Assembly: GCA_018969605.1 (NCBI GenBank)
Contig: JAGWXY010000003.1
Location: 66-64,065, forward strand
Reading direction: 5' to 3'
Length of the DNA stretch: 64,000 bases
Origin: Verrucomicrobiota bacterium
GTDB taxonomy: Bacteria > Verrucomicrobiota > Verrucomicrobiia > Verrucomicrobiales > Akkermansiaceae
Position numbers and translations under genes: made by a program. Of the stretch, positions 3,279 to 13,326 are shown one piece after another (the stretch's first letter is position 1; every line of letters starts with the position of its first letter). The notes under the pieces are model-generated. The model saw only the letters and a list, made by a program, of their open reading frames with translations. It was not told the DNA's origin and searched no databases.

Positions 3279-4499
3279 ATGAGCCGTTTAGAAGGAAAAG
3301 TACTCGTCGCCCAAGGAGGCGGCCCCACCCCCGTCATCAACCAAAGCGTCGTCGGCGTCGCCCTCGAAGCCCGCAAATTCAGCCAGGTCACATCGATTTA
3401 CGGTGCCGTCCACGGTGTGCGCGGAATCATCGAGGAAAACTTCGTCGATCTGACCCGCGAGACCACCCACAACCTCGAGCAGGTCGCCGACACACCGTCC
3501 TCGGGACTCCTCTCGACCCGCGACAAGCCCGATGAGGAATACTGCGCCCGCATGTTCAAGGTCATGCAGGCCCACGACATCCGATACTTCTTCTATGTCG
3601 GCGGCAACGATTCTTCCGACACCGTCCGCATCGTCAACGAACAAGCCCAGCAGGCAAACTACGAACTGCGCGCGATCCACATTCCCAAGACGATCGACAA
3701 CGACCTGATGGAAAACGACCACTGCCCGGGCTTCGGCTCCGCAGCCCGTTTCGTCGCGCAGGCATTCACCGGCGTCAACCTCGACAACCGCGCGCTCAAG
3801 GGCGTTTACATCGGCGTCGTGATGGGTCGTCACGCCGGATTCCTCACCGCCTCATCCGCCCTCGGCCGCAAGTACTACGACGATGGCCCGCACCTCGTCT
3901 ATGTGCCGGAGCGCGCCTTCGATACCGAGAAATTCCTCGCCGATGTCGATCGTGTGTACTCGAAGTTTGGCATGTGCACGATCGCTGTTTCGGAAGGTAT
4001 CTCCGACAAGGATGGCACCCCGATGATCACCAAGCTGATGGGCGAAGAACGCGATGCCCACGGCAACCTCCAACTCTCCGGCACCGGCGCCCTCGGCGAC
4101 CTGCTCTCGCAGACGATAAAGGACGGCCTCAAGCTCAAGCGCGTTCGCTCCGACACCTACGGATACCTTCAGCGTTGCTTCATCGGATGCCGCTCCGACC
4201 GCGATGCCCACGAAGCCCGCGAGGTCGGTGAAAAGGCAGTCCAGTACGCCATGTGGGACAATGTCGATGGCTCGATCGCGATCCGCCGCCCGGTCCTCAA
4301 CTACAGCGTCGATTACGAACTCGTGCCGATCGAAAAGGTCGCCGGCAAAACCCGCCACATGCCCGACAATTTCATCAACGCCGACGCCAATGGCGTCACC
4401 GAGGACTTCCTCAACTACTGCCGCCCGCTGCTTGGCTCGGACTTCCCGCAGTCCCACCGCCTGCGCGCGCCAATGGTGCCAAAAATCCTCCACAAGTGA
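3279..4499 (+). CDS. 6-phosphofructokinase family protein (possibly PPi-dependent type)
   Basis: 406-aa ORF. 'AQGGGPTPVINQS', 'GGNDSSDT' and 'PKTIDNDL' are PFK-family motifs. Phosphoryl-donor specificity cannot be decided by eye. Confidence 0.85.
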   Translation: MSRLEGKVLVAQGGGPTPVINQSVVGVALEARKFSQVTSIYGAVHGVRGIIEENFVDLTRETTHNLEQVADTPSSGLLSTRDKPDEEYCARMFKVMQAHDIRYFFYVGGNDSSDTVRIVNEQAQQANYELRAIHIPKTIDNDLMENDHCPGFGSAARFVAQAFTGVNLDNRALKGVYIGVVMGRHAGFLTASSALGRKYYDDGPHLVYVPERAFDTEKFLADVDRVYSKFGMCTIAVSEGISDKDGTPMITKLMGEERDAHGNLQLSGTGALGDLLSQTIKDGLKLKRVRSDTYGYLQRCFIGCRSDRDAHEAREVGEKAVQYAMWDNVDGSIAIRRPVLNYSVDYELVPIEKVAGKTRHMPDNFINADANGVTEDFLNYCRPLLGSDFPQSHRLRAPMVPKILHK

Positions 4500-4639: not shown

Positions 4640-7600
4640 TTGCCAATGCACCGCGTTTTTGTCGAAAAATTTTCTCCCCACGATATCGAGGCCCGCCACT
4701 TGCTCGCCGATCTCAAGGAGTCGCTCACACTCCCCGGCCTCGAATCCCTGCGCATCATCCAACGCTACGAAATCGACGGCATCGGCGCAGACCTCATCGG
4801 CGACGCCACCCAGCAGATTCTTTCCGAACCGCAAGTCGATCGCACCAGCACCTCACTCGAAATTTCCAACAACGAACACGCGTTTGCGATCGAGTACCTG
4901 CCGGGCCAGTTCGATCAACGCGCCGACTCAGCAGCCCAGTGCATCCAGATCCTCACCGGCGGTTCGCGACCCACCGTTGCCTCAGCCAAGGTGATCATCC
5001 TGCGCGGCAATCTTTCCACTTCGGAAATCGATGCGATCAAATCCTACGCGATCAACCCGGTGGATTCACACGAAGTTCCCGTGGCCGGATCCGGCGAACG
5101 CCATCAGCCGGCTGCTCCCGCCGATGTCGCGGTTTTGAACGGCTTCAACATCAGCGACCCTGCCGAACTTCGCAAACAACTCGGCCTCGCGATGTCCGCC
5201 GCCGATGTGGCATTTTGCCAAACCTATTTCCGCGACCAGGAAAAACGCGAACCAAGCATCACCGAAATCCGCGTGCTCGACACCTATTGGTCCGACCACT
5301 GCCGCCACACGACATTCCTTACGGAAATCACCGATGTCGTTTTCGACAATGAAAACAGTCCGGTCTACCGCGCATGGCAAACCTACCTTGCGACGCGCAA
5401 AAAACTCGGACGCGACAGCAAGCCCGTCACGCTGATGGACATCGCCCTCACCGGCATGCGCGAACTTCGCGCCTCCGGCGAGCTCGACAACCTCGAAGAG
5501 TCCGATGAAGTCAACGCAGCCTCGATCGTCGTCCCGGTCACCATCAAAAAATCAGCCACAGCCGAACCCACCACCGAGGAGTGGCTCGTGATGTTTAAAA
5601 ATGAAACTCACAACCATCCGACCGAGATCGAACCCTTCGGCGGCGCCGCCACCTGCCTCGGCGGCTGCATTCGCGATCCGCTCTCCGGCCGCTCGTATGT
5701 TTATCAAGCCATGCGCGTCACCGGCGCGGGCAATCCGCTCACGCCATTTTCGGAAACGCTTCCGGGCAAATTGCCACAACGAAAAATCTGCCGCACCGCA
5801 GCTCACGGTTATTCCTCCTACGGCAACCAAATCGGCCTCGCCACCGGCGAAGTCGCCGAAGTTTTCCACCCGGGTTATGTCGCCAAACGCCTCGAGATTG
5901 GTGCGGTCGTTGCCGCCGCCCCACGCTCGCAAGTCTTCCGCGGCAAACCGGCCACCGGCGATGCGATCCTTTTGATCGGCGGCCGAACCGGACGCGATGG
6001 CGTCGGCGGCGCCACCGGATCTTCCAAGGAACATACCGACACCGCGCTCGAAAATTCCGCAGAGGTACAAAAGGGCGACGCCCCAACCGAACGCAAAATC
6101 CAACGCCTTTTCCGCAACCCGGTCCTCACTCGCAAAATCAAGGTCTGCAATGACTTCGGCGCCGGCGGCGTCTCGGTCGCTATCGGCGAAATCGCGCCCT
6201 CGCTTCGCATCAACCTCGATGCCGTTCCCAAAAAATACGACGGACTCGACGGCACCGAACTCGCCATTTCCGAATCCCAGGAACGCATGGCGGTCTGCAT
6301 CGATCCCGCCGACATCCCCTACTTCCTCAAAGAAGCCGATCGCGAAAATCTCGACTGCACACAGGTCGCCGAAGTCACCAACGACGGCCGCCTCGTCATG
6401 CTCTGGCGCGACAAAAAAATCGTCGATCTCTCACGCGCATTCCTCGACACCAACGGCGCCAGCCAATCGGCCACGGTCCGTGTTTCCTCTCCCTTGACAC
6501 CCGGCTTATTATACTCCCATGAACAATCAGCAAATCTACTTGAACGAAGCCCACAAGGCAGCCTGCGAGAAAGCCTTGGCGCTGCAGGCGAATCAATCGC
6601 CGAGACCCTTGAGCGAGTCCATCAAGCAAGCGAAAGATCTGGCATCTCTGTCCCCAAGACAAAAAATGAGCGACACGAGCTCCACAGAGCCCTACGCACC
6701 ATTGAAGAACAGCAACTACGAAGCCGCTTGACCCGACTTTTCATCGCACCTGATGAATTCCAGCATCACTGGAACACAACCGGCTGTCTCGGGGGAGCTG
6801 AACAAAAAGTCTATCCGACAGGTAACTGCGAGTACATCAAGGCAAACAATGGCAGCTACCACGGACACTGGCTGCAATACATCGAGAGGTTGAGACTTCA
6901 CGCAATCCTCTTTCCCGACACCGCTTATAAGATTATCGGTCTTCTAGATGACAATGGAGAGCTTTCAATTGTCGTTTCACAGCCAGAAGCTTACGCAGCT
7001 ACGGATGGCAACGGATACCATCTCGGAGCCTCACGCTCCAAAGTCGAAGAGCACATGAAATCTCTCGGCGCATTTCGCTTCCGTAATGACGACTATTACC
7101 TTCCTTCCGAAGATCTTTTCATCGAAGATCTTCATGAGGAAAATGTGCTAATCGGCACCGACGGAGAAACGCTGCGTTTCATTGATCCCGTCATCTATCT
7201 CCGCCCCCCCGATCTGCCAGTTCCATCTCCCTTGGCGGAGGCGCCCCACCCGCTGACTTCCTCTATTGATCTTCGCTCATCGCTCACGGATCGCTTGTCC
7301 GCTCTGAGCACCTGCTCACGCAAAGGCCTTGGCGAGCGCTTCGATGCCTCGGTGGGCGCCGGCACTGTACTGTGGCCTTTCGGTGGAAAACACCAACTCA
7401 CCCCACCCGACGCGATGGTGGCCAAGCTGCCTCTCCTCGAAGGTGACACCGATGCCTGCAGCTTCATGGCATGGGGTTTCGATCCCTTCCTCTCCGAGAA
7501 ATCCCCCTTCCACGGCGCGGTCCACGCGGTGACCGAATCCGTCTGCAAAGTCGTCGCTGCCGGCGGCCGACTCCAAGACATTCGCCTCACCTTCCAAGAG

Positions 7601-9118
7601 TATTTCCCAAAACTTGGCAACGACCCGCAACGCTGGGGCATGCCCTTCGCCGCACTTCTTGGCGCCTATCACGCGCAGCACTCGCTGCGCCTCGCCGCCA
7701 TCGGTGGCAAGGACTCAATGTCCGGATCGTTCAATGATTTGGATGTGCCGCCGACCCTCGTTTCCTTCGCTCTCGCACCCGGACTCGCAAGCCTTGCGCT
7801 CAGCCCGGAGTTCAAGGAAAGCGGATCCGCTATCTCATTGGTGGAAATTCCACTCGATGCGGAAGGTTTGCCTCAATTCGATTTGTTGAAATCGACAGCC
7901 GAGGCAATTCACCAGCTCAACACCGCGGGTCATTTCCTCTCGCTGCATTGCATCGGCCAAGCAGGCATCGCTGCCGCGCTTGCAAAAATGTCCTTCGGCA
8001 ACCACATCGGCGTCGATGTCGAGACCACCCTCGATCTGCTCGTACCACGCAGTTTTGCCTTCCTGATCGAAAACAGAACCACCTCAAGCGACGCCATCCA
8101 AAAAGCACTCCCTACGCTCGTTGCTCTCGGCACAACAAGCGCTGATCCGCAACTCACCCTCAACGGCATCAGCCACCCGATCGACGCGCTTCAAGCCGCA
8201 TGGACCGGAACACTCGAGCCGGTCTACGCCAGCAAGGCTTCCGAAGACTCCGCAACAAAATCGGTGGAATTGCCCGCATTCAAAGCATCAAAGCAAAACC
8301 GCTCGAAAAACAGCGCCGCCACACCAAAGGTCATCATCCCCGCATTTCCCGGCACCAACTCGGAATACGATTCCGCCAAATCATTCCGCAAAGCGGGTGG
8401 CAATCCCGAGATCCTTGTCTTCCGCAATCTCAGCCAACAACACATCAGCGAATCCCTCGACGCATTCGCCGCAAAAATCCGCGAGAGCCAAATCCTCATG
8501 TTTCCTGGCGGATTCAGCGCCGGCGACGAACCCGACGGCTCGGCAAAATTCATCGCTACCATCATCCGCAGCCCGAAAGTCGCCGAGGCCATCATGGACC
8601 TCATCCATCATCGCGACGGACTCATCCTCGGCATCTGCAACGGCTTCCAGGCACTGATCAAAACCGGCCTCGTCCCCTACGGCGAAATCCGCCCACCCTC
8701 GACCGATTCGCCAACCCTCGTTCACAACACGATCGGTCGTCACATCTCCCAGTATGTCGACACGCGAGTGGTATCAAACCAATCGCCGTGGCTCTCTCTC
8801 TGCAATCCCGGAGACATTCACACCGTGCCAATCTCACACGGCGAAGGCCGCTTCTTCGCCGATGATGCAACGGTCCAACAACTCGCCGCAAACGGCCAGA
8901 TCGCCACCCAGTATTGCGATGCCAATGGAAATCCATCGATGGGCAACGCCATCAACCCGAACGGCTCGGCCTTTGCGATCGAAGGGATCACCTCGCCCTG
9001 TGGCCGAGTCTTCGGAAAAATGGCCCACTCGGAACGCGCCGGCAAACATGTCGCCAAAAACATACCGGGCAACAAGCATCAGCCGATCTTCGAAGCCGGC
9101 ATCAGATACTTCAGCTGA
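4640..9118 (+). CDS. purL: phosphoribosylformylglycinamidine (FGAM) synthase, single-chain form, carrying a 246-codon in-frame insertion
   Basis: 1492-aa ORF. It has PurL N-terminal, duplicated AIRS-like synthetase and C-terminal glutaminase regions ('YWSDHCRHTTF', 'NETHNHPTEIEPFGGAATC', 'GERFDASVGAGTVLWPFGGK', 'LGICNGFQAL', 'ISHGEGRF'). It is longer than expected because of the block at 6497-7234. Confidence 0.95.
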   Translation: MPMHRVFVEKFSPHDIEARHLLADLKESLTLPGLESLRIIQRYEIDGIGADLIGDATQQILSEPQVDRTSTSLEISNNEHAFAIEYLPGQFDQRADSAAQCIQILTGGSRPTVASAKVIILRGNLSTSEIDAIKSYAINPVDSHEVPVAGSGERHQPAAPADVAVLNGFNISDPAELRKQLGLAMSAADVAFCQTYFRDQEKREPSITEIRVLDTYWSDHCRHTTFLTEITDVVFDNENSPVYRAWQTYLATRKKLGRDSKPVTLMDIALTGMRELRASGELDNLEESDEVNAASIVVPVTIKKSATAEPTTEEWLVMFKNETHNHPTEIEPFGGAATCLGGCIRDPLSGRSYVYQAMRVTGAGNPLTPFSETLPGKLPQRKICRTAAHGYSSYGNQIGLATGEVAEVFHPGYVAKRLEIGAVVAAAPRSQVFRGKPATGDAILLIGGRTGRDGVGGATGSSKEHTDTALENSAEVQKGDAPTERKIQRLFRNPVLTRKIKVCNDFGAGGVSVAIGEIAPSLRINLDAVPKKYDGLDGTELAISESQERMAVCIDPADIPYFLKEADRENLDCTQVAEVTNDGRLVMLWRDKKIVDLSRAFLDTNGASQSATVRVSSPLTPGLLYSHEQSANLLERSPQGSLRESLGAAGESIAETLERVHQASERSGISVPKTKNERHELHRALRTIEEQQLRSRLTRLFIAPDEFQHHWNTTGCLGGAEQKVYPTGNCEYIKANNGSYHGHWLQYIERLRLHAILFPDTAYKIIGLLDDNGELSIVVSQPEAYAATDGNGYHLGASRSKVEEHMKSLGAFRFRNDDYYLPSEDLFIEDLHEENVLIGTDGETLRFIDPVIYLRPPDLPVPSPLAEAPHPLTSSIDLRSSLTDRLSALSTCSRKGLGERFDASVGAGTVLWPFGGKHQLTPPDAMVAKLPLLEGDTDACSFMAWGFDPFLSEKSPFHGAVHAVTESVCKVVAAGGRLQDIRLTFQEYFPKLGNDPQRWGMPFAALLGAYHAQHSLRLAAIGGKDSMSGSFNDLDVPPTLVSFALAPGLASLALSPEFKESGSAISLVEIPLDAEGLPQFDLLKSTAEAIHQLNTAGHFLSLHCIGQAGIAAALAKMSFGNHIGVDVETTLDLLVPRSFAFLIENRTTSSDAIQKALPTLVALGTTSADPQLTLNGISHPIDALQAAWTGTLEPVYASKASEDSATKSVELPAFKASKQNRSKNSAATPKVIIPAFPGTNSEYDSAKSFRKAGGNPEILVFRNLSQQHISESLDAFAAKIRESQILMFPGGFSAGDEPDGSAKFIATIIRSPKVAEAIMDLIHHRDGLILGICNGFQALIKTGLVPYGEIRPPSTDSPTLVHNTIGRHISQYVDTRVVSNQSPWLSLCNPGDIHTVPISHGEGRFFADDATVQQLAANGQIATQYCDANGNPSMGNAINPNGSAFAIEGITSPCGRVFGKMAHSERAGKHVAKNIPGNKHQPIFEAGIRYFS
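6488..7234 (+). other. in-frame insertion of foreign composition within purL, bounded by 9-bp direct repeats; encodes a kinase-like domain
   Basis: TCTCCCTTG occurs at 6488-6496 and 7226-7234, both codon-aligned as Ser-Pro-Leu, 738 nt (246 codons) apart. The interior is visibly AT-richer and uses tta/cta/aga/agg/att codons that are rare in the flanks. Motifs: 'GCLGGAEQKVY', 'EYIKA', 'EDLHEENVL', 'FIDPV'. Confidence 0.7.
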
Positions 9119-10802: not shown

Positions 10803-12485
10803 TCACCATGCTTTTGCGACTCCAAAATGGATCATGGCATTGCCGTCCTCCGATTCCGGGTAGTCCAAAGGAAGAGCGACATCAAACCTCGCTGAGGTAT
10901 TGCCGTCGAGCTGCCATCTGAATCCAATGCCGCCGGATAACAACTGACCCTCATCACTTACCTGATCACGACTCAGTGAGGCACCATCAATGAATGTCAA
11001 AGCGAGAATCTTACCCATGTCAAAAAAACGATAAGGCCGCGTCTGCAATTCGATCCCTCCCACCAGTCCTTTTGATCCATATCCAACGGACTCATCAAAA
11101 CCTCGCACTAGGTTGTATCCCCCAGCGTGAATTTGATCCGATGCGAGCAGATCACTTTCGGTCCATTGCGCCTGCAACCTGCCTGAGAGATTCAAATGCT
11201 TTCCAAGTTTCAAAGTCCTACGCAATTCCGTCTTGGCGATCAATGCCTCGGCGCCGGATCCGCCAAGCTCGATGAAATCCTCGTCACTCGATCCCAAAGC
11301 CCCATTACCGGGAGAGTAACTGAGGGAAAAATCCACACGCGTCATTCCAAAACGATCACTTCGCCGCCCCTTCCATCCGGTTTCGATTTGAAAAAACTGA
11401 ACTGCCGAATCGGAACCATCCGAGAAAAGGTAATTGTTGGTCCTCAATTCCGCACCAAACCGGCATTCGTGCAAAACCGAATGCCAGTGCCCAAGCGGAA
11501 TTCGATGCGTCACTCCAACCCGCGAAAACTTTCCACTTTGATCCAAAGGACCGTCAGATTCTGCCTCGGATTGACTGTAACCGGATGATATCTCAGTGAT
11601 CTGCCTGATCATCCACGGTATCTCATAAACAAAACTAACAGCTTGGAGCCTGCCGCTCTCCAAAGCCGTGGTGTACTGACCGGTTAACCTGTGATCCAAT
11701 TTCCAAAGATCACCATATTGATAAAGCAGGTAGGCCCGCTCATCACCCAGCGAATCGCCGAGCTGATTGTCCACTCCCGCATACAATTTCCACGGTTTTG
11801 GGGAACGAACTCGCAGCAAGAGATCCACAAGGTCATCAACCTCGCCTTCAACCATCGAAATGCTTGCATTTCTGAGTGGGTTCTCATTGATCCACTCGAC
11901 GTCTTCTATGATGCGCGATTTGTCGATGGGGGCACCTTTTTGAGCACGCATACCCCTTGCAACGAACTTATTCCCGAATGAGGACTCCGTCATCATTACC
12001 TTTCCGTAGCGAGCAGGAGCCAGTCGCACCGCAAGAATGCCTGAAGTGATTTCCTGGGGAGGAAATATCGCTTTCAACATTTCTCCGCTGGCGGGTTGGG
12101 CGGCCGACTCGATCTTTTTTCTCAAAAATTCCAATGACTCGAGCGAAACAGGCTCGCCCAAAAAACCTGGTACGATCCGATTGATCGCGCTTTTGGTGCG
12201 TTCATCAAAACCATCGATCAACAGCCCACGGGGATTTTTCGCCTGCAAAGCCAATGCCGATTGGGCCGATTTCGAAATCACAACCCCTTTCAAAGCTGGC
12301 AGAATGGCTTCTTTTCGGTTTGCAACTTTTCGACCGTCTTCTGCAGTGTCAACCGAACTTTCTACGGCATGATCCTTCAGACCGCGGATCTCAGTTCGAG
12401 TGACATCATCGGCACTCAGTCCATACATCGGCAGTGCCAGAACGACCGAAAAAACAAACCATAAAATCAGCAATTTTTTTGGCAT
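10803..12485 (-). CDS. ShlB/FhaC/HecB-family outer-membrane two-partner-secretion transporter (TpsB)
   Basis: 560-aa ORF with signal peptide, POTRA-like N-terminal part and beta-barrel. 'LRVRSPKPWKLYAGVDNQLGDSLGDERAYLLYQYGDLWKLDHRLTGQYTTA' is typical of haemolysin activation/secretion proteins. Lower GC than its surroundings. Confidence 0.8.
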   Translation of the reverse strand: MPKKLLILWFVFSVVLALPMYGLSADDVTRTEIRGLKDHAVESSVDTAEDGRKVANRKEAILPALKGVVISKSAQSALALQAKNPRGLLIDGFDERTKSAINRIVPGFLGEPVSLESLEFLRKKIESAAQPASGEMLKAIFPPQEITSGILAVRLAPARYGKVMMTESSFGNKFVARGMRAQKGAPIDKSRIIEDVEWINENPLRNASISMVEGEVDDLVDLLLRVRSPKPWKLYAGVDNQLGDSLGDERAYLLYQYGDLWKLDHRLTGQYTTALESGRLQAVSFVYEIPWMIRQITEISSGYSQSEAESDGPLDQSGKFSRVGVTHRIPLGHWHSVLHECRFGAELRTNNYLFSDGSDSAVQFFQIETGWKGRRSDRFGMTRVDFSLSYSPGNGALGSSDEDFIELGGSGAEALIAKTELRRTLKLGKHLNLSGRLQAQWTESDLLASDQIHAGGYNLVRGFDESVGYGSKGLVGGIELQTRPYRFFDMGKILALTFIDGASLSRDQVSDEGQLLSGGIGFRWQLDGNTSARFDVALPLDYPESEDGNAMIHFGVAKAW

Positions 12486-12549: not shown

Positions 12550-13326
12550 TCATCGCAGAAAAACTCGACCACCTTTCAACACTGCTGATTTCGCACTGCC
12601 TGAAGCATCAGCGGTGTCATTGTCATCCGCAACATTGAGATCCTTGCTTTTCTGGAGTTTGCCTGAAGCGGAAATCGCCTTGTCGTCCTCAACAGGACTC
12701 TCAGCATTGATGACTGCCACTTCTTCGACGGCATTAACGATTGCCAGCTCATTTTTTATCAGCTTGCCACCGACAACCACTGCTTCCCCGGGAGATGAGG
12801 AGGTGTCAGCAAAACTCATTTTGTCGTTCCGTGAAAAAGTAACAATTCCGGAAGAGTAAGCAAGCTCGGGACTAGGGGTGCCGGTCGAAGCAACAGACCT
12901 TTCATTTTCCGCAATCCTGCCACCAGTGACAGCCACTTCGCCGTCAAATGAACTTTCGCCAGTCGGTACCAGACCATCACACGAGAAGGCCACGGCATCC
13001 TTGGAATCATCCGAGTCACCTGCCTGTACGCCAGCGTCTTCGACGATCTCGCCGCCAGTGACAACTGTCTCGCCATCAAACGAACTCTCACCCGACAGAA
13101 CCAGCGGGCATACGCAAGGATCTGTTCCCACACTGGAAAATTCCGAATTTGCCTCCACAAGCGGATCGCCATCGACAACGGCATCACCCTCGATCACAGC
13201 TTCACCATCGAATGATTGAGAGCCAGACAAGATAAGGCTGCCAGTCGTCAGAGTGCCGTCACCAAAAACCGCTGTTGCGCCTGCAAGAAACGCAGCAGTC
13301 AAGAGGCATAAGTGTTTGTTTGACAT
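12550..13326 (-). CDS. small secreted repeat protein (PATR-like beta-strand repeats), candidate TpsB cargo
   Basis: 258 aa with signal peptide 'MSNKHLCLLTAAFLAGATAVFG'. Three to four repeats: 'LSGSQSFDGEAVIEGDAVVDG', 'LSGESSFDGETVVTGGEIVED', 'PTGESSFDGEVAVTGGRIAEN', 'SSPGEAVVVGGKLIKNE'. Acidic. Confidence 0.6.
   Translation of the reverse strand: MSNKHLCLLTAAFLAGATAVFGDGTLTTGSLILSGSQSFDGEAVIEGDAVVDGDPLVEANSEFSSVGTDPCVCPLVLSGESSFDGETVVTGGEIVEDAGVQAGDSDDSKDAVAFSCDGLVPTGESSFDGEVAVTGGRIAENERSVASTGTPSPELAYSSGIVTFSRNDKMSFADTSSSPGEAVVVGGKLIKNELAIVNAVEEVAVINAESPVEDDKAISASGKLQKSKDLNVADDNDTADASGSAKSAVLKGGRVFLR

Follow-up and report, generated by a model that had tools for sequence, protein, structure and literature searches.

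A predicted Kinase-PolyVal-type kinase in the interdomain linker of PurL in Verrucomicrobiota, and its apparent exchange and loss

How did an essential enzyme of purine biosynthesis come to carry a protein kinase between its two halves, and what might the kinase do there? The question is raised by purL in a 64,000-nucleotide (nt) stretch of DNA from a Verrucomicrobiota bacterium of the family Akkermansiaceae (GenBank assembly GCA_018969605.1, contig JAGWXY010000003.1, positions 66 to 64,065 of the forward strand), here called the window, in whose coordinates features are given. A first-pass annotation, made by a model from the sequence alone, had observed that purL reads through as a single open frame of 1492 amino acids (aa), roughly 240 aa longer than usual, that the additional stretch is AT-rich and carries a kinase-like motif set, and that it is bounded by 9-bp repeats, which, it was suggested, might mark a new kind of mobile insertion. 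The comparisons described here bear out the frame, the composition and the kinase. They do not support the mobile element, and point instead to one old insertion of a complete kinase gene, the alleles of which have since been exchanged between PurL genes by homologous recombination and repeatedly removed by in-frame deletion.

The kinase module in the PurL linker

The frame is open from 4640 to 9118 on the forward strand and encodes 1492 aa when counted from TTG. In close orthologues and relatives the called start corresponds to the ATG at 4646 (MHRVF, MHRVFVEKF...), which gives 1490 aa, and this is probably the true product, the TTG at 4640 being only the mechanical start of the open reading frame (ORF). 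The protein matches TIGR01857 at equivalog level (1659 bits against a cutoff of 1057), the insert splitting the match into two stretches, and AIRS_C and GATase_5 domains are detected with Pfam, with both halves and the glutaminase domain covered. Insert-free PurL orthologues have 1241 aa, about 249 fewer than the window's protein. The insertion site falls between the two halves of the formylglycinamidine ribonucleotide (FGAM) synthetase fold, and the insert occupies, in frame, the surface linker that joins these two pseudo-symmetric halves. The layout is as follows:

4646..9118, + strand: purL with the kinase inserted, encoding a single-chain FGAM synthase (TIGR01857 match, starts of orthologues)
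4646..6489, + strand: N-terminal part of PurL (N domain, FGAR-AT linker, first AIRS/AIRS_C half), which up to base 6489 shares about 96-97% of its DNA sequence with L001, an allele lacking the insert
6490..7307, + strand: polymorphic block, whose place is taken in the empty allele of this species by 72 unrelated nt that encode IHDQLSDKSSRTKKSIAEILSDLS (allele comparison)
6494..7234, + strand: predicted complete Kinase-PolyVal module (aa 619-865), colinear with full-length free-standing proteins (about 240 aa) and with parts of polyvalent proteins (alignment; structural model)
6782..6814, + strand: Gly-rich, ATP-binding loop GCLGGAEQKVY, with G-A-E (aa 719-721) unchanged throughout a diverse set of 20 PurL inserts (alignment)
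6791..7204, + strand: match to Pfam PF18762, Kinase-PolyVal (aa 718-855; profile positions 31-159 of 160)
6839..6841, + strand: invariant Lys734 (IKAN), the predicted ATP-anchoring lysine (alignment of the 20 inserts)
7127..7144, + strand: catalytic loop D830-L-H-E-E-N835, Asp and Asn invariant (same alignment)
7184..7186, + strand: invariant Asp849 of the I-D-P-V motif, predicted metal-binding equivalent of DFG (same alignment)
7235..7307, + strand: fast-evolving linker after the insert (AEAPHPLTSSIDLRSSLTDRLSALS; ratio of non-synonymous to synonymous substitution rates, dN/dS, 0.7-1.2)
7308..9118, + strand: second AIRS/AIRS_C half of PurL and C-terminal GATase_5 glutaminase domain (Pfam, DNA comparison)

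The assignment to Kinase-PolyVal is clear, the insert scoring 99.8 bits against a gathering cutoff of 27 (E = 2.1e-28), and the motifs picked out in the first-pass annotation, which had also likened the block to the small kinase of polyvalent proteins, stand at the positions given for them inside this match. In insert numbering, the residues invariant across the 20 diverse PurL inserts are G101-A102-E103, K116, Q163, D212, N217 and D231. An exhaustive HMMER search returned 446 relatives, many of which align across nearly all 249 aa; they are either stand-alone proteins of about 230-260 aa or segments of proteins of 2000-4800 aa, and the InPase, LPD1, PBECR5 or NUDIX domains of these large proteins identify them as polyvalent proteins. 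Since the insert is colinear with an entire stand-alone protein, from the N-terminal helices through the Pro-rich C-terminal tail, it represents one whole gene of that kind. Searches of the insert against PHROGs and NCBIfam gave no match.

Structure prediction is in accord with this picture. The AlphaFold2 model of the insert has a mean confidence (predicted local distance difference test, pLDDT) of 87, and its structured part stops a few residues past the IDPV strand. Fold matches in the PDB, among the top 50 listed, are all eukaryotic-type protein kinases, with some 150-180 columns aligned by Foldseek to CK2, JAK and other protein kinases (probability 0.9-0.99); the matches are weak, as is to be expected of a truncated fold. 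Among viral folds the best match (E = 3e-9) is to a 'large polyvalent protein' from a phage. From sequence and model together, the block is predicted to be one complete, minimal protein kinase of the Kinase-PolyVal type, which lacks the usual C-terminal subdomain and keeps all ATP-binding and catalytic residues. At the level of DNA, CGAAGATCTT is repeated exactly 15 nt apart at 7101-7141 and forms part of a 17-nt imperfect palindrome over the catalytic-loop codons (SEDLFIEDLHEE), probably by coincidence.

Kinase-PolyVal domains have been described in polyvalent proteins of phages and prophages of the Verrucomicrobia-Chlamydia group and Bacteroidetes, and as stand-alone proteins in Bacteroidetes, in a paper that makes no mention of PurL or FGAM synthase (Iyer et al. 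2017, PMC5512222). The insert shares with the domains described there the family, the truncated architecture, the diagnostic Glu that precedes strand 2 (GAE) and a conserved Gln (VSQP), whereas those domains belong to multi-effector proteins delivered by invaders and the present host is a chromosomal, essential enzyme of purine biosynthesis. The PurL inserts also differ from other Kinase-PolyVal proteins in a loop of about 7 additional residues ahead of GASR. That the window's protein is itself a polyvalent multi-effector, with MuF, LPD, ART or other such domains, can be dismissed, since it contains PurL domains only, has housekeeping neighbours and has no phage or plasmid matches. The stand-alone Bacteroidota proteins (about 230-260 aa) are colinear with the whole insert at 30-43% identity; their genes are free-standing in varied chromosomal contexts, with no conserved neighbours around them, pur genes included. 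Among the top relatives no other housekeeping host of the kinase was found, the other Pfam domains present being of effector type and the remaining proteins having none. A further embedded copy within a Verrucomicrobiota genome is a 911-aa protein (L050:5353-8085, in a metagenome-assembled genome labelled 'Opitutus sp. GAS368') with Kinase-PolyVal at aa 272-439 and no other recognisable Pfam domain.

Distribution and allelic turnover

The window's PurL was compared with those of its 120 nearest clusters. Complete kinase motifs are found at the same site in 50 of these 121 sequences, and five more have long linkers there, of which at least one (P0043) is a partly deleted kinase. In a scan of GTDB species genomes, 24 species were found to have the insert, under labels such as Akkermansiaceae, Luteolibacter and Verrucomicrobiaceae, and the cultured isolate Roseibacillus ishigakijimensis KCTC 12986 is one of them. 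A word-index protein search with the insert alone gave a single match, of 161 aa, despite dozens of insert-bearing PurLs, which reflects a limit of the index and not rarity. The window's insert is 49-83% identical to other PurL inserts and 30-43% identical to relatives outside PurL, and every close relative (at least 48% identity) is located at the same PurL site. The PurL-borne kinases thus resemble one another more than they do any relative found outside PurL, in keeping with a single origin; they share one site and form one clade, which argues that a complete stand-alone gene was inserted once, long ago. Several insert-bearing PurLs are 60-220 aa longer than the window's (P0069, of 1711 aa, and P0027, P0071, P0037 and P0070, of 1549-1581 aa), which suggests further insertions elsewhere or much expanded linkers.

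The occurrence in 24 species, a cultured isolate included, speaks against an artefact of assembly. The same junctions recur in independent JGI, ENA, NCBI and Logan assemblies and in the genome of the isolate, and the reading frame has stayed open and is subject to purifying selection. The chance that the fusion reflects a chimeric assembly or an annotation error is accordingly negligible.

On a tree built from the PurL flanks only, the presence of the insert is extremely patchy, with linker lengths of about 280, about 80-106 and about 35 aa next to one another. Judged by cluster member counts, alleles with and without the insert are about equally common in the species-level cluster to which the window belongs, and freshwater metagenomes such as JGI 3300042865, 3300034092 and 3300032268 contain both. 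The empty allele L001 comes from the same species, with the same gene order and 95-97% DNA identity, and its insert-free purL encodes 1241 aa; filled and empty alleles share identical synteny. A comparison of related PurL genes for presence and absence had been proposed in the first-pass annotation, and the polymorphism is indeed seen among near-identical genes.

Two processes appear to generate this variation, which were traced in the following segments:

6593..7163, + strand: kinase core exchanged between alleles, 53-70% identical in DNA to L004 and with a proportion of synonymous differences (pS) of 0.75; the insert ends and the PurL flanks are 95-100% identical
6650..7261, + strand: segment that the remnant L085/P0005 lacks through a clean in-frame deletion of 612 bp, the junction of which shows CTCT microhomology (comparison with the window)

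The first process is replacement of alleles. Across pairs of sequences the identity of the insert correlates with that of the flanks only at r = 0.29: P0026 and P0035 have flanks 93% identical and inserts 51% identical, the window and P0003 have 96-97% and 65%, and P0003 and P0004 have flanks of 88% and inserts of 98%. Between the window and L004 the insert ends are identical in DNA and the synonymous sites of the core are saturated, whereas the synonymous rate (dS) of the flanks is 0.18-0.26. Rapid in-situ evolution under positive selection is ruled out as the cause of this divergence, because the synonymous saturation is confined to the core, and the allele has been replaced. The exchanges have their breakpoints at the conserved ends of the insert or within the PurL flanks. 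The dN/dS of the kinase core, measured within an allele class, is 0.06, against 0.06-0.11 in the flanks, so that purifying selection on the kinase is as strong as on PurL itself.

The second process is deletion. Linkers some 80-100 aa long represent remnants that arose independently, in which the first 40-70 residues of the insert are kept, the kinase core is missing and the junction is different each time. Partial inserts are seen in at least nine PurL clusters (P0114, P0083, P0094, P0095, P0089, P0086, P0087, P0075 and P0043), all with different junctions, either as N-terminal remnants or as internally deleted kinases; four of these clusters have in common a novel tail, GFGRKKP..GETG(A/S)N(L/I)T. 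The kinase is thus dispensable and modular, removed repeatedly by in-frame deletions. Taken together, the sequence comparisons indicate that kinase alleles of deep divergence pass between PurL genes by homologous recombination, as does a null allele, and that the turnover which followed the insertion has proceeded by such recombination and by in-frame deletion, not by transposition.

The composition of the insert is also atypical, as the first-pass annotation had remarked of its AT content and rare codons. Between the 9-mer copies the GC content is 0.51 and that of third codon positions (GC3) 0.50, against a GC3 of 0.70 in the purL flanks and 0.67 +/- 0.07 over 46 ORFs of the window. The codons TTA, CTA, AGA, AGG and ATT account for 15 of 243 in the insert and 11 of 1218 in the rest of purL (about 7-fold, p = 2e-6). 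GC3 of the insert is lowered in 23 of 24 lineages, and equal in the other (L019); it is lowered in both allele classes of the window's species.

Flanking repeats and the transposon interpretation

The 9-mer TCTCCCTTG occurs in the window at 6488 and 7226 only, 738 nt apart and in frame as Ser-Pro-Leu at both positions, exactly as first reported, and the similarity around the copies extends to 13 of 15 nt:

6488..6496, + strand: left copy of TCTCCCTTG (Ser-Pro-Leu), judged a coincidental similarity between Pro-rich linkers
7226..7234, + strand: right copy of TCTCCCTTG, inside the kinase module's own C-terminal Pro-rich tail; TCTCCCTTA in L002 and L004 (alignment)

The first-pass annotation had read these as the target-duplication-like ends of a transposon-like cassette, such that taking away one repeat and the interior would restore a normal linker. 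An exact in-frame 9-mer near both ends of the module is what this would produce, and exact direct repeats of 18 and 24 nt enclose the module in two other species. The natural empty allele contradicts this reading: in place of 6490-7307 of the window L001 has 72 unrelated nt and not a single copy of TCTCCCTTG, and so excision of one repeat with the interior does not recreate it. Presence or absence of the insert is therefore polymorphic among near-identical purL genes, and the breakpoint is not at the 9-mer. In the closest insert-bearing relatives, L002 and L004, the second copy is TCTCCCTTA, an 8/9 match, and the stand-alone homologues share the Pro-rich tail that holds the right copy. At 17 of 21 other loci the boundary repeats are only 5-7 nt long, the others having 8 nt (L017), 9 nt (L021) and, in two cases, 18 and 24 nt. 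Such repeats are readily met by chance: purL alone contains 121 exact 9-mer direct-repeat pairs, and a repeat of at least 9 nt lies within +/-40 nt in 4.9% of random window positions paired 737 nt apart. The 64 kb hold no terminal inverted repeats at the insert ends, no transposase and no second copy of the insert, the close relatives all sit at one site in a single clade, and the 24-nt repeat belongs to a dispersed palindrome family. The 9-bp repeats of the window are accordingly best regarded as coincidental and not as marks of the insertion boundaries, and transposition of a cassette with a 9-bp target-site duplication is very improbable.

The longer repeats are of interest in their own right. 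In L024 the module is bracketed by exact in-frame 24-nt direct repeats, ACGGAGCGCGGACTTCAGTCCGCC (TERGLQSA), at 5965-5988 and 6733-6756, and in L027 by exact in-frame 18-nt direct repeats (GSLPVS) at 3327-3344 and 4098-4115; L009:7513 and L028:2008 are also listed among the loci with flanking repeats, and in several other lineages the same peptide is present on both sides or only downstream. These repeats are small hairpin-forming palindromes (GCGGAC-TTCA-GTCCGC and GGGCA-GCT-TGCCC). The 21-mer core of the 24-nt element is a dispersed repeat, met in at least 120 unrelated metagenome contigs; inverted pairs of it often follow directly on stop codons, in the manner of repetitive extragenic palindromic (REP) sequences. 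Palindromic elements seem to colonise permissive PurL linkers, and as direct repeats they could favour excision by recombination, though this is not a feature of the window's locus; that REP-like hairpins bracketing the cassette in some lineages help its exchange or excision is a more speculative proposition.

In-frame insertions of palindromes in coding genes are familiar from Rickettsia palindromic elements and REP-like repeats. The resemblance to these lies in short dispersed palindromes that in some species are translated as part of the linkers of PurL next to the kinase; it is limited to the flanking linkers and does not extend to the kinase module, and the window has no intact element. 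A peptide of the form (V/L)A(G/R/L)ASCPPPSS recurs downstream of the kinase and sometimes also upstream (P0063, P0030, P0034, P0035, P0042, P0051 and P0071), and is probably another palindromic element translated in a different frame. The first part of the linker at 7235..7307 reads A(E/Q)xSCPxP in relatives and resembles this recurrent motif, and AEAPHPLTSS at 7235-7264 of the window (AEASCPPPAS in P0002) looks like a decayed copy of it.

Possible roles of the embedded kinase

The explanation that we favour, and to which we give about an even chance of being correct, is that of a trans-acting, conflict-related kinase with PurL as its carrier, set within an old, recombining insertion of single origin. 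A stand-alone gene for a polyvalent-type kinase entered a permissive PurL linker once, long ago; selection has since kept its catalytic residues while the cassette was deleted repeatedly and exchanged by homologous recombination; and PurL would serve mainly as a constitutively expressed carrier, from which the looped-out kinase would work in trans on other proteins and take part in conflict with phages or mobile elements. Action in trans, with PurL as carrier, is suggested because very different kinase alleles sit on identical backbones and no PurL residue co-varies with the insert, a scan of the PurL flanks for residues associated with its presence, as candidate phosphosites or docking surfaces, having found none. 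The part in conflict is put forward tentatively, as somewhat less likely to be right than wrong, on the strength of the family's origin in effectors of phages and conjugative elements together with the presence/absence polymorphism, the deep allelic classes and introgression. A more specific version, in which an invader-type effector has been domesticated as a host defence or decoy, maintained as deep allelic classes plus a null allele by long-term balancing selection and introgressing across species, is doubtful.

Several points weigh against the favoured explanation. No close relative of the insert was found in phage and plasmid collections (tblastn) or in IMG/VR (scan for the PurL-type pattern), and the insert matches neither PADLOC-DB (0 families at E<=1) nor PHROGs. 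The purL gene is not in a defence island, its neighbourhood consisting of chromosomal housekeeping genes. The failure to find a co-varying PurL residue is a weak negative, since a target in cis could be a conserved residue or lie inside the insert. The lowered GC3 across lineages could reflect weaker codon selection as well as ongoing exchange, and the window's species could either have regained the insert by recombination or have retained it while its relatives lost it. Where the first-pass annotation had spoken of a regulatory or defence-related fusion, the in-frame fusion holds, and the defence sense is preferred here despite the lack of a PADLOC match or a defence island.

The regulatory sense would have the embedded kinase phosphorylate PurL or other enzymes of the purine pathway, so tying FGAM synthesis to a signal, with the allelic diversity being incidental. 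The physical tethering of the kinase between the two catalytic halves and the strength of purifying selection on it, which equals that on PurL, speak for this, and Ser/Thr kinases do regulate purine biosynthesis in some bacteria, for instance Stk1/PknB acting on PurA in Staphylococcus aureus. However, no position of PurL co-varies with the insert, the largest difference in residue frequency being 0.32 and following phylogeny, and insert-free, remnant and very different kinase alleles are found on backbones 96-98% identical, which would not be expected of an integrated regulator of an essential enzyme. Moreover, the stand-alone and polyvalent relatives work without PurL. A simple cis-regulatory role is thus the less likely of the two, and in absolute terms rather unlikely, though it has to be taken seriously as a rival. 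Alternatively, the insert might be a selfish passenger with the logic of an intein but without splicing, which persists because an essential gene tolerates only its precise loss and which spreads by recombination with no benefit to the host. Its location in an essential gene, the patchy distribution with exchange between lineages, the atypical composition (lowered GC3 in nearly all lineages) and the lack of co-adapted host residues are all compatible with such a passenger. What makes it improbable is that the low dN/dS of the core and the invariant catalytic residues indicate selection for kinase activity, which has no known role in DNA mobility; in addition, loss should be easy in a variable linker that tolerates many different in-frame deletions, and no Hint/intein or nuclease domains are present.

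The analogy with inteins nevertheless holds in several respects: a domain-sized element sits in frame in a gene that is essential, is polymorphic for presence and absence, and spreads by homologous recombination. In contrast to inteins, the insert has neither Hint/splicing motifs nor a homing endonuclease, sits in a variable linker and not in a conserved active-site motif, and encodes a kinase under selection. An intein proper is excluded by the absence of any Hint/intein match in Pfam and by the junctions, SSPL|TPGL and PSPL|AEAP, and nothing in the sequence suggests that the block is spliced out of the protein. A second parallel is offered by the tips of polymorphic toxins and the target-recognition domains of hsdS, where deeply diverged alleles are likewise swapped on near-identical backbones with breakpoints in conserved junctions. 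The PurL cassette differs from these in that the backbone is a metabolic enzyme with no toxin/immunity or restriction-modification logic evident; no silent cassette array was found within the 64-kb window.

A full-text literature search found no description of a PurL-kinase fusion, consistent with the first-pass annotation, which was aware of no such cassette. The kinase family and domain insertion as such are known; a conflict-system kinase in an essential biosynthetic enzyme, or its allelic segregation there, is not described in the literature searched, and the population-genetic behaviour is unusual, since it is uncommon in a housekeeping gene for near-identical backbones to differ in a module that some alleles have and others lack, and that occurs in truncated and in deeply divergent forms as well. 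Were the conflict role to prove true, the PurL kinase would exemplify a new way to deploy accessory functions of fast turnover from core genes, where searches of pangenomes and defence islands do not look, and under balancing selection with an immune-like function essential metabolic enzymes would be carriers of hypervariable modules. If, on the other hand, the kinase regulates PurL, it would constitute a natural, swappable regulatory module in purine synthesis. The presence of the insert in the cultured R. ishigakijimensis, together with natural insert-free alleles for comparison, makes the system tractable.

Elsewhere in the window, the only other ORFs with a GC3 as low as that of the insert are 10806-12485 and 12553-13326, both on the reverse strand (0.51 and 0.47, against the mean of 0.67). 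The 560-aa product of the former and its neighbour may have been acquired horizontally.

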